In this document: positions 3,660-14,169 of the stretch, piece after piece
How positions within the stretch are numbered: position 1 is the first letter of the stretch
Layout of the letters: each line of letters starts with the position of its first letter
Assembly (NCBI GenBank): GCA_900544135.1
Contig: UQTU01000001.1
Location: forward strand, 47,678-111,677
Length of the DNA stretch: 64,000 nucleotides
DNA from: an uncultured Collinsella sp.
Lineage (GTDB): Bacteria > Actinomycetota > Coriobacteriia > Coriobacteriales > Coriobacteriaceae
Direction: 5' to 3'
Notes under the pieces: model-generated
What the model was told of the DNA's origin: nothing
Database searches by the model: none
What the model saw: only the letters and a program-made list of their open reading frames with translations
Translations under genes and position numbers: made by a program

Positions 3660-4522
3660 AGACTTGATTGCCCGTTAGATCGGCACTGTTCCAAACCATG
3701 GGGGTAGGATGTCTCCCACCGCGGCCTGTGAGGTGAAATCTTGACCGCCGCGGAATCCGCCTACGGGCAACGCTCCATCTCTGGTTGGGGTGAAGCCTAT
3801 GAACTTGTTTCTCGAAATCCGGCGCCTCTCGATGTATGTGACCGGCATTGCCCGGAACCTCTACTCGATCTGGCGGGAATATAAGCAGTAACGGATAGCG
3901 AAGAGAGTCATGGAAAAGGGTCAGTTGCAGCCGACCCTTTAAGACGATAGAACCTGCGTTGCCCGCGCTTCCAAAGTTGACCGACTGAGGAGCGGGTTCC
4001 GCGGCACAACCTGATTTTATCCAGCGAGGCGGCTCTTTTCCAGCCGCTCCGCCGTTTATTTACACCTACCGCCACAAGTGGATTCCGCGCGAACGAGAGC
4101 AAAGAAACAACGCCGGCGCGGCCAACAGAACAGACAATCCATGCGATCAAAGAAATATAAAAGCTCCCGCGGCCTCGGTTCCTCGCCCAGGTCTAGGCAC
4201 TTTTCTTGGCACCATCGCACCACGTCCGCCATCGCCTCCGGCTCGACACTCATTAAAATGCAAGCGGGAAACGATCTCAAGATCACCAACAACAGCTTCA
4301 AGCAAGCGCTTGAGCAACTGTCACAACACGAGCGCCTGTAAATAGGAGCCAGTTTAATAAGTAAGAGAGCCTTGCCACCAATTGTCATTCTGGCGCGGTC
4401 AACCGATAAGTCAAATGGCAACTAACGGGTGTCAGATATACCAATATATGCAAGATTAACTGCTAGAATGCAATGGTGGACAGGCTCACCAACGTCGAAG
4501 AAGCATAAGGTAAGGAGTGCGC

Positions 4523-7612
<3,090 letters not shown>

Positions 7613-7626
7613 GGAGTTAAAACAGC

Positions 7627-9150
7627 ATGGCTAAAAGCAAGGCTAAGGACACCAAGAAGAACACGGCCGACGTTGGCTTTGAGGACCAATTGTGGAACGC
7701 CGCAGACGTGCTGCGCGGCAACCTGGACGCTGCCGAGTACAAAAACGTCGTATTAGGCCTTATTTTCCTGAAGTACCTCTCGGACCGTTTTGACGAACGT
7801 TACCTAGAACTCGTCGCAGAAGGTTACGGCGACGAAGAAGATCGCGACTGTTACATGGAGCAGAATGTCTTCTTCGTTCCCGAAGAGGCACGTTGGGCGA
7901 ATATCGCACAGGCGGCACATACGCCCGAAGTTGGCCAGATCATCGACAATGCCATGCGCGCCATCGAACGCGAGAATGACAAGCTCAAGGACGTGCTGCC
8001 CAAGAACTTCGCTCGTCCCGAACTAGACAAGCGGCGTTTAGGCGACGTCGTCGACTAATTCACAAATGTACAAATGACCGACAACGAGAGCGAGAAAGAC
8101 CTGTTAGGGCGAGCATACGAATATTGCCTGCAGAAATTCGCATCAATGGAAGGCAAAAACGCCGGCGAGTTCTATACGCCGTCGTGCATCGTGCGCACGC
8201 TGGTTGAAATCCTCCAGCCTTTCCACGGTCGCGTGTACGACCCCTGCTGTGGTAGCGGAGGCATGTTCGTGCAGTCCGCCGCCTTCGTCGAGCACCATGG
8301 CGGCAACGTGGTACAGGACATCACCATCTTTGGCCAGGAGAGCAACCCTACCACGTGGAAGCTCGCAAAGATGAACCTCGGTATTCGCGGCATCGAGGCC
8401 GATTTGGGCAACTATGCTGACACCTTCAGCGCCGACCAGCACAAGAATGAAAAGTTTGACTATGTGTTGGCAAACCCACCCTTCAACCTCAAGAACTGGG
8501 GCGGCGAAGCGCTGCAGGAAGACGTACGTTGGAAGTACGGCATGCCGCCCACGGGCAATGCTAACTTCGCTTGGATGCAGCATATGATTTGGCATCTTAA
8601 CGGCACGGGCAAGATTGGCCTCGTATTGGCAAACGGGTCGCTCTCGAGCCAGACGAGCGGCGAGGGCGATATTCGACGCGCTATCTTAGAGGACGATTTG
8701 GTCGAGGGCATTGTAGCCATGCCGGGGCAGCTGTTCTACAGCACCCAAATTCCCGTGTGCCTGTGGATCCTGAACAAGAAGAAGGCTCAGTCCGGCAAGA
8801 CGCTATTCATCGATGCCCGCGAAATGGGCACCATGGTCTCTCGCAAACTACGCGAGTTTACCGAAGAGGACATCAATAAAGTTGCATCCGCATTCGACTC
8901 CTTCCGCAAGGGCGAGTTCGAGCCCGTGAAGGGGTTGAGCGCCATAGCAGATTTGGATGAAATCGCCAAGCAAGATTTCATCCTGACGCCCGGTCGCTAC
9001 GTAGGCATTGCCGAGGTCGAAGACGACGGTGAGCCGTTTGAGGAGAAGATGGCACGCCTAACCAGCGAAATATCAAAGTGCTTTGAAGAGTCCAACCGCC
9101 TGCAGGAGCAGATTAAGAAGAATCTGGAGGCGATTGGATATGAACTTTAG
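7627..9150 (+). pseudogene. hsdM: Type I RM methyltransferase subunit (HsdM) interrupted by an in-frame TAA at 8056-8058
   Basis: ORFs 7627..8058 (HsdM N-terminal domain) and 8074..9150 (N6-adenine methyltransferase domain with the NPPF motif in VLANPPFNLK and the AdoMet motif DPCCGSGGMF) are in the same reading frame. They are separated only by a TAA codon: ...GDVVD*FTNVQMTDNESEKDLLGRAYEY. Confidence 0.8.
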
Positions 9151-9661
9151 CGTTGCGACTCTTGGAGAACTCAGTCTCGGCGACGGAAAATACGGTATCG
9201 CCGCTTCGGCAGTTGATTATGATGCGGAATTACCTGCATATCTTCGTATTACGGATATCAACGACGACGGCACCCTGAATTGGAACGACCGCAAATCTGT
9301 AGACGACCCCGCCGCTTACAAATACATGCTGAGAGATGGCGATATCGTTTTCGCCAGAACGGGCAACAGTACCGGAAGGAATTATTACTACGATTCTCGC
9401 GACGGCGAGTTTGCCTTCGCGGGCTTCTTAATTCGCTTCTCGCTGGACGATAAGAAAGTTAATCCTCGCTATGTCAAATACTATGCCCAGTCGAAAGCTT
9501 ATTGGGACTGGGTGGCCTCTTTTAACACCGGCAGCACCAGAGGCAATATCAATGCTAAAACTTACGCACAGATGCCAATCCCCCCTGCCCGATCGCCCGA
9601 CGCAAGACTCAATCGTTACACTATGCGACTCTATCTCGAATAAAATCCGACTCAACACTAC

Positions 9662-9678
9662 GCTAAATGGCTATTTAG
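9662..9678. repeat. Crossover-site copy A (gctaaatGGCTatttag), inside the hsdS central conserved region where it encodes LNGYL
   Basis: Imperfect palindrome with an asymmetric 4-bp core GGCT. One of four copies (with B, C and D). Confidence 0.6.
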
Positions 9679-10278
9679 AAGAGCTGGCGGACGGCATGTT
9701 CCGACGGCACTTCGGGGGGCTAACAGACAACGCTACTCTGGCCGATTTTGCCAATGTCACAATGGGTCAATCCCCGGCAGGCAGCTCCTATAACGAAACG
9801 GGGATTGGAACCATCTTTTATCAAGGTCGCGCCGAATTTGGCTGGCGTTACCCCACTCAGAGACTAAGCACTACGGAGCCCAAGCGCATGGCAAAAGCGG
9901 GAGATGTCTTGATGAGCGTGCGCGCTCCCGTGGGCGACCTAAACTTGGCGTACGAAGACTGCTGCATTGGACGCGGGCTAGCTGCAATCCACTGCGACTA
10001 TCCATCGTATGGTCTCTACCTAATGCGCTCACTCCATAAGAAACTTGACGCCTATAACGGTGAGGGGACTGTATTTGGCTCGATAAACGGCAAAGCTCTA
10101 AATGGACTCCCCATTGCGTTACCCAACAATGCAGCGATACGCGCGTTTGAAAAAGAAGCCACGCCCATTGATACTCAGATCCGAAACAATGAAGTCGAAT
10201 CGCGGGCGCTTGTCACCCTTCGCGACACATTGCTTCCTAAGCTTATGTCGGGCGAGATTGACGTCTCGAAGGTTGACC

Positions 10279-10848
10279 TCACACAGCTAAATAGCCATTT
10301 AGCTTTGAGTTATTCTTGATTTTCTTTTGGATGGTATCAATCACCTGAACGATTTTTGCTTGCTTCTCAAAAGTGGGCAATGGCATTGACAGCTTGCGAA
10401 AAGTACTCGTTGGACGCCCCAACGCCGGAACGCCAGTTTGCGTTTTATTCGAAAGTAACCGCCATTGCCCCTCTCGAGTATGAAAATAGTAGACAAAAAA
10501 TTTCGGTAGCACCTTGTCATTACAGCGAATGCGAAATTGGCTTTGCGAAATGACGTAGCGAGGATACTTGGAGTCATAGGGGACCATCGCGACTTGGCCC
10601 AACGTTCCACGGTGTGTTATTACGATATCGCCACGCGAGGCCAATGCGTTGCCCAGGGAATTTGCTTTTTCAGGAGTGACATAGCGCAGCGCAGTGTCGT
10701 TCGTCTCAAAGCCAGTTAGATTCGATCCATTAAATACCGGAATACCGGAGTTGACAAAGCAATCAGTCTTAATATTTGAGCCGAAGGGTCCCATGGCAAT
10801 CTCATCAATAAGATCCTCAACGCATACTTCTTCACTTTCGGCAATCAT
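10279..10848 (-). CDS. Half-size HsdS cassette (TRD1b plus central conserved region), translationally coupled to the upstream recombinase
   Basis: TRD-like body ending in a CCR-type helix (MPLPTFEKQAKIVQVIDTIQKKIKNNSKLNGYLAV*). Its ATG (10848-10846) overlaps the recombinase TGA (10847-10845) as ATGA. Confidence 0.6.
   Translation of the reverse strand: MIAESEEVCVEDLIDEIAMGPFGSNIKTDCFVNSGIPVFNGSNLTGFETNDTALRYVTPEKANSLGNALASRGDIVITHRGTLGQVAMVPYDSKYPRYVISQSQFRIRCNDKVLPKFFVYYFHTREGQWRLLSNKTQTGVPALGRPTSTFRKLSMPLPTFEKQAKIVQVIDTIQKKIKNNSKLNGYLAV
10285..10304. repeat. Crossover-site copy B (agctaaatAGCCatttagct), shared by the 3' end of + strand hsdS (encodes TQLNSHLA) and the 3' end of the minus-strand half-hsdS (encodes KLNGYLAV)
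   Basis: Same palindrome as A but with the core inverted (AGCC). The two convergent ORFs overlap through it. Confidence 0.6.
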
Positions 10849-11801
10849 TCCAAATACTTCCTATGCGAAGCCTTTACATTGTTCTGGTTTACCATGGCGT
10901 AATGCATGGTGGTGTCTATTTTCGCATGGCCTAGCAGCTTTTGCACCTGCTCTATGGGCATTCCTTTGTCAATAGCATGGGTAGCAAGCGTACGGCGAAA
11001 CTTATGCGGATGAACGCGATTGACGCCAGCGCTTCTGCCTAGGTCACGCAAGCGGAGCTCTATGTTCCCAACCGTAATACGTCGAGCTGAGGAATCGAGT
11101 GCGACAAAAAGCGCAGGGCTCTTGTCGGCACGGCTCGCAAGATATTCCGTGAGATGCAACTTGGCACGCGCGTCGAAGTAAACAGGGCGCTGTTTATTTC
11201 CCTTTCCCATTACAAGGCATTCGCGCTCATGCAAATTGACGTCCTTCCTGTCGAGTCGTACAAGCTCGCCAATGCGCATGCCGGTCGAAGAGAGAAGATC
11301 AACGATGGCAAGGTCCCGCTTGGATTCGCATGCATCTCGCAAGATCTCCAGCTCCTCGTCACTTAACACCTCTTTGGTTATTTGAGCAGTTTTGACGCGG
11401 CGAATACGCCTTACAGGGCTTTTAACAATATAGTCTTCATCCTCAAGCCACGAAAAGAAGCTCGACATAATGCGACGTATATTATCGATTGTGACTTTAC
11501 TGGAACCGCGAGCCGTCTCGTAATCATTGAGATAGCGCCGCAGGTCATCACTTTCGACCTGCGTATAGGACTTAGCAAGTGCCGCGTTCATATGCCGCAA
11601 AGTTGCCTCATAGTATGCAATAGTTTTAGGTGAGCATCCCTCAACTTCTTTAGCGGTGAGAAATAGCGAGAGCAGGTCTTGCCCTGGCTCTGCCTGTTTT
11701 GGTCCAAGCGTTTGCCTAAGTGTAATGGCTAGATGCTTGAGCTGGTGTGGGTCGAGAAGGCCCTGCATTTCCGAAAGCACGGTATTGATAACGGTTTCCA
11801 C
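10845..11801 (-). CDS. Tyrosine site-specific recombinase (phage-integrase/Xer family) embedded in the hsdS locus
   Basis: C-terminal catalytic-domain motifs (HKFRRTLATHAIDKGMPIEQVQKLLGHAKIDTTMHYAMV, catalytic Tyr in HY) and an N-terminal core-binding-like domain. Start taken at the GTG at 11801, which has SD GAAAGGAG 5 nt upstream. The tracked ORF extends to 11909 through site C. Confidence 0.8.
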   Translation of the reverse strand: METVINTVLSEMQGLLDPHQLKHLAITLRQTLGPKQAEPGQDLLSLFLTAKEVEGCSPKTIAYYEATLRHMNAALAKSYTQVESDDLRRYLNDYETARGSSKVTIDNIRRIMSSFFSWLEDEDYIVKSPVRRIRRVKTAQITKEVLSDEELEILRDACESKRDLAIVDLLSSTGMRIGELVRLDRKDVNLHERECLVMGKGNKQRPVYFDARAKLHLTEYLASRADKSPALFVALDSSARRITVGNIELRLRDLGRSAGVNRVHPHKFRRTLATHAIDKGMPIEQVQKLLGHAKIDTTMHYAMVNQNNVKASHRKYLE

Positions 11802-11860
11802 GCTGCTCCTTTCGTCGAGTACGATAGCCACAGTGTGGACGGCGCGTTGTACATAGTGAA

Positions 11861-11878
11861 GTAAATGGCTATTTAGCT
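11861..11878. repeat. Crossover-site copy C (gtaaatGGCTatttagct), just upstream of the silent TRD2b cassette and within the 5' extension of the recombinase ORF
   Basis: Core GGCT in the same orientation as A. On the minus strand it encodes TAQLNSHLL in the recombinase reading frame. Confidence 0.55.
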
Positions 11879-12628
11879 GTGCAGTGTGAGGCAATTGCTG
11901 AACGCGCAACAGGTGAAAATACCGTCCTGGAGTCGCTGTGCGACTTAGTGACCGAGAAAGCCGATTGCAGCGAAGCGGACTTCGATACCTATGTTTCTAC
12001 CGAGTCCCTCCTCCCTAACAAAATGGGCAGGCAGATAGCGTCGTCCCTACCTCAAACAGGGAAAGTGACGGTTTATCAAGCTGGGGATATTCTGATCTCC
12101 AATATCCGCCCCTATTTCAAGAAAATTTGGTACGCGGACCAAGCTGGAACGTGTTCCGGCGATGTTCTCGTATTTAGGGCAAAGCAACCAGAATGGGCGG
12201 GCTACCTTTATTCTTGCCTGCGCAATGATTCCTTTTTCGACTTCGTCATGAAGGGGGCTAAAGGCACCAAGATGCCGCGAGGCGACAAGAAGCAGATGCT
12301 TACCTACGTAGTCAGCGCCAGCCCAAACCAATTGGTAATCGGTTTCATGGCATCGGCGCTCAAGCACATATCAACCGCAAACAAAGAGAGTGAACATCTT
12401 GCTGCTCTTCGTGACGCCCTTCTCCCCAAGCTCATGTCCGGAGAGGTTGACGTCTCAAAGGTCAATCTCACGCAGCTAAATAGCCATTTAGCTGAGATCC
12501 TACGGCCATTCGGATGCCATATCCCCGCAATACAAAAACGGGGCAGCCCGCACTCCTGCGAACCGCCCCGTACCCCTGGCTATCGCGTCATAAGACCAAC
12601 CAGCACCACTCCCCTACTTCCCAAATAG
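11879..12628 (+). other. Silent hsdS cassette (TRD2b plus C-terminal conserved helix); no own start codon or SD
   Basis: TRD-like body ending LAALRDALLPKLMSGEVDVSKVNLTQLNSHLAEIL..., which parallels the end of the active hsdS (LVTLRDTLLPKLMSGEIDVSKVDLTQLNSHLA). It is preceded by site C (read as NGYLAV) and followed by site D. Confidence 0.55.
12474..12493. repeat. Crossover-site copy D (agctaaatAGCCatttagct), at the C-terminal helix of the TRD2b cassette
   Basis: Identical 20-mer to copy B; core AGCC. Confidence 0.55.
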
Positions 12629-13951
12629 CGCACCCAGCAGACCGCGGCGTTTGGGCTTTTCCTCTCGGTAGCAACCCTCGGCTGCTGCTGCCACCTGCCG
12701 CGGCTGCTCGCCACCTCCGCGGCGTACGATCTGGTATAGGAACGGCGACTTAACGTATTTGACCTCGATGGGCGTGGCGTGCACGGTGCTCTCGCCGGAC
12801 AGATGAAGGCTCAGGTTGAGCGGCGCCACGATATGCGTCTCGCGCTTGTCGCTAAACACCACCGCGGCCGCGCGGCCCGTCTGGCCGTTCACGGCGATGC
12901 GCACCTGCTCGCCGTCGCGGCTGTCCGTTGCCGGACGGTCGACAAAGTAAACCGGCACCATCACCAGACCGTCCTTATGCTTGCGAGCCTTGCGCGCCCA
13001 GGTGCGGATGCTCTTTTTATTGAGCCCCAGTACAACCTCGGCGTCGTTGCCCGCAACGTCGAGCGCCAGCTTATCAATGACCACCTGGTCCTTGGCAGAC
13101 GCATCGACGGAGACGACGCGAAAGTCACCTTCCTGCATGGCAGGGTCAAACGGCCCAACCTTGGCATAGTCCCACGGCTCCAAAATGCCCATGAGACGAA
13201 CGTCCAGGTAGTTTGCCCTGGGGTATGCCCAGTCGAGCACCTCGTAGTACACCAGGGTCTCCTTGCTCAGGCCCTTGCCCGGGAAGCTCGCCATCATACG
13301 CAGGTCCGCCAGCGCCATGGGGAAATAGAAGAGCATCATGTCGTTTTGGATCGCGTCTTCCACGTCGTGCCCGGCAAAGGCATCCGGGTACTGGCGCACC
13401 AGCTGCAGCGCGTTGGCACGTGCCTGCTGCGGCGAGATTTCGCAGGGAATACCCTGCTCCGGCACATACTCCGCACCCACACCCATGGTCAGACGTTTGC
13501 TAAACGTACCGGGCTTGAGCAGGTCGGCAATGCCGATCTTGTTGCCGCAGGACGGGCACTCAAACACACGCTGCGTTGACTCGCCCTCAAAGGACGCTCC
13601 GCAGAAGGGGCAAGGAATGCTCACATACGTGGCCTCTTGGAACTCCTGCGCCGTGCCGCGATCCTCCCACAGCAGATGTTCCAGGACCGACTGATTGCGC
13701 CAGTGCGAATTGAAGAAATACCAGTCCGGGTCCTCCGGGCGCTCGAGTTGCGACACATGCGTGAGCTTGAGCAGTCCATCCACCACCGTCAACGGCGTAT
13801 GGCGAATGCCCAAAGCGCTCTTGGGCTCTCCGGCGTCCGCCTGCCACGGAATGACCGCGCCGCAATAGGCGCACTCAAAGCTGCGCTTAGCCTGGTGCGA
13901 GTACATAGGGCCGCCGCAGTTTTGACATTTAATGGCAAACATCTCGTCCAT
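12614..13951 (-). CDS. Hypothetical protein with two zinc-ribbon motifs
   Basis: CQNCGG...CAYCG and CPFCG...CPSCG pairs. Start taken at the ATG at 13951, which has SD AAGGAGG 7 nt upstream. No other recognisable domain. Confidence 0.5.
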   Translation of the reverse strand: MDEMFAIKCQNCGGPMYSHQAKRSFECAYCGAVIPWQADAGEPKSALGIRHTPLTVVDGLLKLTHVSQLERPEDPDWYFFNSHWRNQSVLEHLLWEDRGTAQEFQEATYVSIPCPFCGASFEGESTQRVFECPSCGNKIGIADLLKPGTFSKRLTMGVGAEYVPEQGIPCEISPQQARANALQLVRQYPDAFAGHDVEDAIQNDMMLFYFPMALADLRMMASFPGKGLSKETLVYYEVLDWAYPRANYLDVRLMGILEPWDYAKVGPFDPAMQEGDFRVVSVDASAKDQVVIDKLALDVAGNDAEVVLGLNKKSIRTWARKARKHKDGLVMVPVYFVDRPATDSRDGEQVRIAVNGQTGRAAAVVFSDKRETHIVAPLNLSLHLSGESTVHATPIEVKYVKSPFLYQIVRRGGGEQPRQVAAAAEGCYREEKPKRRGLLGALFGK

Positions 13952-14169
13952 GGAAACGTCCTCCTTTGCACAGGGGCTATCGACGTTAAGTATGTCGAGC
14001 AAACAGGCACATGCCCATACCCATGTGGCCCAAAATGGACCACCCAGGCAGACGAGAAGGCTCGCTCGTTAGCACCGGCAGACCATTACTGCATTTTCTG
14101 AGCATCGGTGCACAGCGCCTCCGCGCGAGCTACACTATCCCCTTAAACATGATTGTGAGGACGACCGCT

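Follow-up and report, generated by a model that had tools for sequence, protein, structure and literature searches.

A one-base insertion in the hsdS gene of an inverting type I restriction-modification locus of Collinsella, probably an inherited mutation in a decaying system

The window analysed here, a stretch of 64,000 nucleotides of Collinsella DNA to whose numbering all positions refer unless another contig is named, contains a type I restriction-modification (R-M) locus of the known inverting kind. Its genes, recombination sites and lesions are as follows.

4517-7612, plus strand: hsdR, an intact ORF of 1031 aa (1029 aa as called in relatives) with HSDR_N, SWI2_SNF2, T1R_D3-like and T1RH-like_C matches (Pfam).
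7627-9150, plus strand: hsdM, interrupted by an in-frame TAA; HsdM_N and N6_Mtase are read through its 507 aa when Leu replaces the stop.
8056-8058, plus strand: TAA nonsense codon in hsdM, standing where relatives have TTA (Leu), in the linker that joins HsdM_N to the methyltransferase domain.
9140-9643, plus strand: 5′ part of hsdS with TRD A, cut to 167 aa by a frameshift.
9580-9585, plus strand: C6 tract, the site of a +1 insertion; the ancestral C5 reads ATC CCC CTG (Ile-Pro-Leu).
9586-10319, plus strand: 3′ part of hsdS, in another frame, with the central conserved region, TRD B and the C-terminal conserved region.
9663-9678, plus strand: recombination core S1, CTAAATGGCTATTTAG, encoding LNGYL; a breakpoint of the inversion in contig L008.
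10287-10302, minus strand: S2, the same core inverted, read as LNSHL on the plus strand and LNGYL on the minus strand.
10279-10848, minus strand: half hsdS of 189 aa with TRD C and the central region (Pfam Methylase_S), corresponding to the N-terminal half of protein P0025.
10845-11909, minus strand: tyrosine recombinase, longest ORF 354 aa (328 aa as called in relatives), Phage_integrase (E-value 1.4e-35) and a SAM-like N-terminal domain.
11862-11876, plus strand: core S3, TAAATGGCTATTTAG, within the 5′ extension of the recombinase ORF.
11879-12628, plus strand: silent cassette with TRD D, the C-terminal conserved region and a 45-aa tail; joined to TRD A in contigs L033-L036.
12476-12491, minus strand: S4, the inverse core; both the L008 inversion and the deletion in contigs L001-L007 have a breakpoint here.

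The four recombination sites are copies of a near-palindromic core of 15-16 bp that alternate in orientation, the inverted pairs being 90-100% complementary. Read one way the core encodes LNGYL of the central conserved region and read the other way LNSHL of the C-terminal conserved region, so that each TRD2-type cassette (B and D) carries its own flanking inverted pair. TRDs A, B, C and D all align as HsdS halves, and cassette B is placed between the two convergent TRD1 half-genes, A and C. On the minus strand the recombinase gene is followed by the TRD C half-gene, with an ORF overlap of 4 nt, and the Phage_integrase match to the recombinase is full-length. The overall organization, hsdR-hsdM-hsdS followed by cassettes in mixed orientation, resembles that of SpnD39III/ivr of Streptococcus pneumoniae and of the TvrR-type loci (PMC7672463, PMC7394358), and the location of S1-S4 in conserved regions of the hsdS copies, next to a locus-encoded tyrosine recombinase, is shared with the short inverted repeats of epigenetic invertons (PMC7672463; Atack et al. 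2020, PMC7394358). Similar behaviour is described by Huang et al. 2020 (PMC7672463) for loci with clade-2 (TvrR-type) invertases, the hits including Actinobacteria: there, HsdS is truncated by some inversions, and segments can be excised. Some arrangements of the present locus likewise have a truncated HsdS, and one derivative has lost a module by deletion between direct sites. It differs from known invertons in that B and D are each flanked by their own inverted near-palindromic 16-bp pair and in that B lies between convergent A and C. The 12 best-ranked of 134 papers matched to Collinsella hsdS inversion make no mention of Collinsella.

Comparison of near-identical strains shows at least four arrangements of the same cassettes. 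Contig L008 (ERZ504728 NODE_4) is 99.97% identical to the window with the segment 9662-12492 inverted (L008 6523-9353). In L033-L036, B and D are exchanged, with A joined to D and B in the distal position. In L038-L047, B is flipped, so that the minus strand carries a C-B gene and the plus strand an A half of 181 aa, and in L001-L007 the C-recombinase-D module is deleted between the direct S2/S4 repeats, which locks the gene as A-B. An inversion between S1 and S2 performed in silico on the window yields a C-B protein of 396 aa together with an A half of 181 aa whose last residues are LNGYLAV, and side by side these read the same as the natural proteins P0025 (22 contigs) and P0127 (93 contigs). 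The shufflon is therefore real and operates in the population, and the lineage that carries the hsdM stop codon continues to undergo inversions. The first-pass annotation had described an A-B inversion, after which the minus-strand hsdS would lack the C tract: the inversion is real and the tract is indeed absent from the C-B gene that it produces, but the locus comprises four cassettes and four sites rather than a simple pair.

The 181-aa half HsdS, which contains TRD A and the central region and stops after LNGYL, is the commonest form of the gene in public data. Three half-HsdS variants, including P0127 and P0123 (cluster 1), occur on 93, 30 and 16 contigs, and one of them is from Slackia. 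This half protein may itself be a working state, and by analogy with NgoAV of Neisseria gonorrhoeae it would be expected to have a palindromic specificity. Where cassette D lies on the recombinase strand (L038 5340-7004, L039-L045 and L047; compare window 11862-11909), an in-frame fusion runs through the LNSHL site and is called by gene callers as a 554-aa TRD-recombinase protein; the fusion is a prediction, and an internal recombinase start is possible. Further downstream, on the minus strand, positions 12614-14002 encode a 462-aa protein with weak zinc-ribbon-like matches (Cas12f1-like TNB, TFIIB and TiaS), convergent with the hsdS/D cassette ORF and overlapping its tail; in L001-L007 this region is only ~92-95% identical to the window. 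The G+C content of the R-M island (4001-12000) is 49-55%, as compared with ~57-69% in the rest of the window, which is consistent with horizontal acquisition.

The lesion in hsdS lies in a run of six C on the plus strand (9580-9585), between AAT and TGCC. The upstream ORF starts at ATG 9140, overlapping the end of hsdM, and proceeds in the frame congruent to 2 modulo 3 until it terminates as ...KTYAQMPIPPARSPDARLNRYTMRLYLE* at 9643, while the continuation of the gene, PLPDRPTQDSIV...LNGYLEELADGMF..., is found in the frame congruent to 0 modulo 3, up to 10319. Deletion of one C restores a single ORF of 392 aa (...MPIPLPDRPTQ...) with a Pfam Methylase_S match and 100% identity, across 99% of its length, to P0001 (E-value 4.6e-262), a protein present intact in gut metagenomes. 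This identity goes far beyond chance and makes the two halves of hsdS one gene, in agreement with the frameshift and the C5 repair proposed in the first-pass annotation. Alignments to the HsdS structures 5YBB/3OKG and among the four half-genes of the locus locate the tract in the IPLP motif, immediately ahead of the central conserved helix, so that its earlier assignment to the boundary between TRD1 and the central region was accurate. The tract lies 78 nt upstream of S1, and hence in the fixed part of the gene, outside the repeat itself. In the 167-aa product the last 19-20 residues are out of frame and the stop precedes the central helix. Separate translation of the 3′ part from ATG 9471 was considered and is unlikely, as it would add ~37 out-of-frame residues and no Shine-Dalgarno-like sequence is apparent there by eye.

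The C6 tract is the only plus-strand C run of at least six in the 64 kb. Runs of G or C of this length number 4 in the window as against 35.5 ± 7.6 in shuffled sequences, a ~9-fold depletion indicating that the genome does not keep up such tracts. Two of the four fall in hsdS; the second is a G6 at 9714-9719 (FGG codons), 130 nt downstream of the C6 and invariant in relatives that have that cassette.

The extra C is real and is not an artefact of the window's assembly. The 454, Ion Torrent and ONT platforms are prone to homopolymer errors, and a miscall by the platform or the assembler, as allowed for in the first-pass annotation, would mean that the gene is really intact. However, the exact 167-aa truncated product is found on five further contigs, which come from two or more assemblies besides that of the window. 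Two of the C6 sequences, ERZ504728 NODE_4 (L008/L012) and ERZ504665 NODE_64 (L009/L013), differ from the window by SNPs alone (two each, no indels, over ~6.5 to 7.2 kb), and L008 is 100% identical to it over a further 3 kb downstream. In L010, a close relative with C5, a single SNP and the one C are all that separates 7.2 kb from the window. Over ~7 kb upstream and ~3 kb (L008) or 1.8 kb (L010) downstream, SNPs and the tract indel are thus the only differences, and the A6, T6 and G6 runs in the compared stretch show no variation, which argues that homopolymer miscalling is not in play. Contigs with such errors do exist among the relatives: L011 and L014 (ERZ504696, DRR042423) are SNP-identical to the window and have 8-12 deletions of one base, almost all of them in short homopolymers, which artificially break hsdR and hsdM and look like the outcome of an error-prone read chemistry. 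Their errors are all under-calls, opposite in direction to an extra C. In the window, the long genes are free of interruptions. A miscall is consequently extremely unlikely. The C5 of L011 and L014 was also considered as evidence of the ancestral state and was rejected, these contigs being error-prone.

Tract length, read from consensus contigs, is C5 in 36 of 38 distinct related contigs and C6 in the other two; no C4, C7 or C8 is present among the 38, and the window and three undisplayed contigs with the 167-aa product stand outside this count. The contigs L001-L007 were fetched through the intact protein, so that their C5 is given by construction, and they were discounted as evidence for C5. 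Two further samples are blind to the frame, five contigs retrieved by a DNA pattern with a gap of free length and ten retrieved by way of the C-B protein P0025. All 15 have C5, and hsdM is intact in each of the 13 in which the stretch is visible. C5 is conserved in several Collinsella species representatives. Two alleles encode the motif as GTG CCT TTG CCG, with no run at all, and this breaking of the run by synonymous codons indicates that the run is a by-product of Pro-Leu coding. The C6 allele is limited to a near-clonal lineage that carries the hsdM TAA. It occurs in two arrangements, that of the window and that of L008, and has thus outlasted at least one inversion.

In hsdM, the context of the nonsense codon is GAC TAA TTC, and relatives encode an uninterrupted HsdM of 507 aa. 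The TAA allele was found on nine contigs from several samples, most of which have A in place of T at the adjoining position 8060. The stop is located exactly at the boundary between HsdM_N and N6_Mtase, and an in-frame ATG follows five codons downstream (8074). This placement makes a two-piece HsdM with residual activity conceivable; no ribosome-binding site was seen by eye near that ATG, and the split product is presumably inactive. An active type I R-M system needs an uninterrupted hsdM and an uninterrupted hsdS, and in the window the first is interrupted at 8056-8058 and the second at 9580-9585. All C6 contigs have the TAA, and the TAA with C5 exists (L010, GCA_008680765.1), but the intact TTA with C6 was never seen among the related contigs compared. 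The first-pass annotation suggested that the frameshift silences only one of two specificities. The C-containing alleles are indeed untouched by it; nevertheless, with the in-frame TAA in hsdM, which that annotation overlooked, silencing of a single specificity is probably moot in the window's strain.

Disruption of hsdM is not confined to this stop codon. In the 90% cluster to which the HsdM N-terminal fragment belongs (P0137-P0150), frameshifts near residues 126 and 176-186 make up five or more distinct alleles, and the hsdM of L003 (4489-6011) presents yet another split. The hsdM of this family is thus disrupted in many independent ways in metagenomes, which suggests recurrent loss of the system.

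The tract could also be a slippage contingency switch that toggles the A-containing hsdS alleles and is layered over the inversion switch, in line with the phase variation raised in the first-pass annotation. In the NgoAV system of N. gonorrhoeae, a tract of G6, G7, G8 or G9 lies between two TRDs of hsdS among 92 strains, and the truncated 208-aa product is active (PMC9577141), so that a length of six is not in itself disqualifying. C5 and C6 both occur among strains that are 2-3 SNPs apart in ~7 kb, a four-gamete conflict with site 8060 permits a second change of the tract, and two of the few long G/C runs of the window are in hsdS. The comparison with NgoAV nonetheless brings out marked differences. 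The gonococcal poly-G tract lies at the 3′ end of hsdS1 (of the pair hsdS1/hsdS2), and truncation to 208 of 410 aa leaves an active protein with its own specificity. Here the tract precedes the central region, and the 167-aa product retains a TRD and ends before the central helix; truncated HsdS is said to dimerise via its C-terminal coiled-coil region (PMC7383803). NgoAV tracts vary over several lengths; the present one shows two, C5 and C6, the latter in one lineage only, in which hsdM is itself broken by a nonsense mutation in every contig. The C6 of the window and the C5 of its other relatives are also short for a slippage switch, as had been remarked in the first-pass annotation: a REBASE screen for slippage-variable hsd genes set a minimum of 9 nt for mononucleotide tracts, and a G7 is the shortest switching example that it cites (PMC7383803). 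The ancestral C5 is conserved across species as ordinary Pro-Leu codons, and the neighbouring G6 does not vary wherever its cassette is found. Taken together, these observations make a slippage switch very improbable, and the tract would have no appreciable switching rate.

A variant of this scenario, in which a slow and reversible change between C5 and C6 silences the TRD-A alleles and leaves the recombinase-strand C-B and C-D genes untouched, thereby superimposing slippage on inversion, has only a slim chance of being correct; its sole hint is that the tract and site 8060 conflict in strains separated by a few SNPs. In a related scenario, occasional +1 ribosomal slippage of tRNA-Pro on CCC-C might restore a small amount of wild-type HsdS.

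In the lineage with the TAA, all four combinations of site 8060 and the tract occur: T goes with C6 in the window and with C5 in L002 and L005, and A goes with C6 in L008 and L009 and with C5 in L010. Such a pattern calls for recombination or a second change of the tract between strains that only a few SNPs separate. The pair 8060 and 8686 fails the four-gamete test as well, which favours recombination or mixed-strain consensus sequences, with recurrent slippage as a less likely cause. The cassettes of L010 downstream of S1 differ from those of the window (75-80% identity), so that its C5 was maybe re-acquired along with them. A SNP tree based on positions 5147, 8060 and 8686 was attempted as a means of ordering the events, and was abandoned in view of the four-gamete failure of 8060 and 8686. 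Taking into account the alleles observed, we infer that the simplest order places the hsdM TAA first, the frameshift in hsdS arising afterwards in a sub-lineage in which selection was relaxed.

The C6 is therefore best explained, with good probability, as an inherited mutation, part of the secondary decay of a system that was probably already without methylase and restriction activity, and not as a slippage switch. A genuine one-base insertion changed C5 to C6 in ATC CCC CTG, within the IPLP motif that ends TRD A. Since the insertion is upstream of S1, in the part of the expression site that stays fixed, all alleles that contain A (A-B, A-D and the A half of 181 aa) are truncated to 167 aa, and this product lacks the central helix needed for binding HsdM. 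The C-containing alleles on the other strand are unaffected. Against this reading stand hsdR and the recombinase, which are still intact, and the inversions that continue in the lineage.

It is also conceivable that the frameshift was selected rather than neutral, having removed the TRD-A specificities, for example as a way of avoiding self-restriction during shuffling, before or independently of the hsdM stop. The many ways in which hsdM is disrupted in the family (at least five frameshift alleles, and the split in L003) suggest a recurrent pressure to switch the system off. Yet with hsdM already null nothing would be left to select, the allelic combinations include TAA with C5 but not TTA with C6, and a single event cannot demonstrate selection; we accord this explanation little probability.

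Inherited decay places the finding in the category of ordinary R-M pseudogenisation, from which it differs in nothing material. Such pseudogenisation by nonsense and homopolymer indel mutations, of which variation among gonococcal systems (PMC6789123) is an example, shares with the present case a lineage-specific stop in one subunit gene and a one-base indel in another, the other genes being intact. More generally, where a frameshift falls in a short homopolymer of hsdS, the diversity of tract length among relatives and the intactness of the partner genes should be checked before phase variation is claimed. The surrounding four-cassette inverton, active across gut metagenomes and often inactivated at hsdM, is of greater interest, but its kind has already been surveyed. 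For this Collinsella, the C6 together with the hsdM TAA constitutes a lineage marker, and the strain has very probably lost its R-M system, a loss that would alter its susceptibility to phages and plasmids and its methylome.
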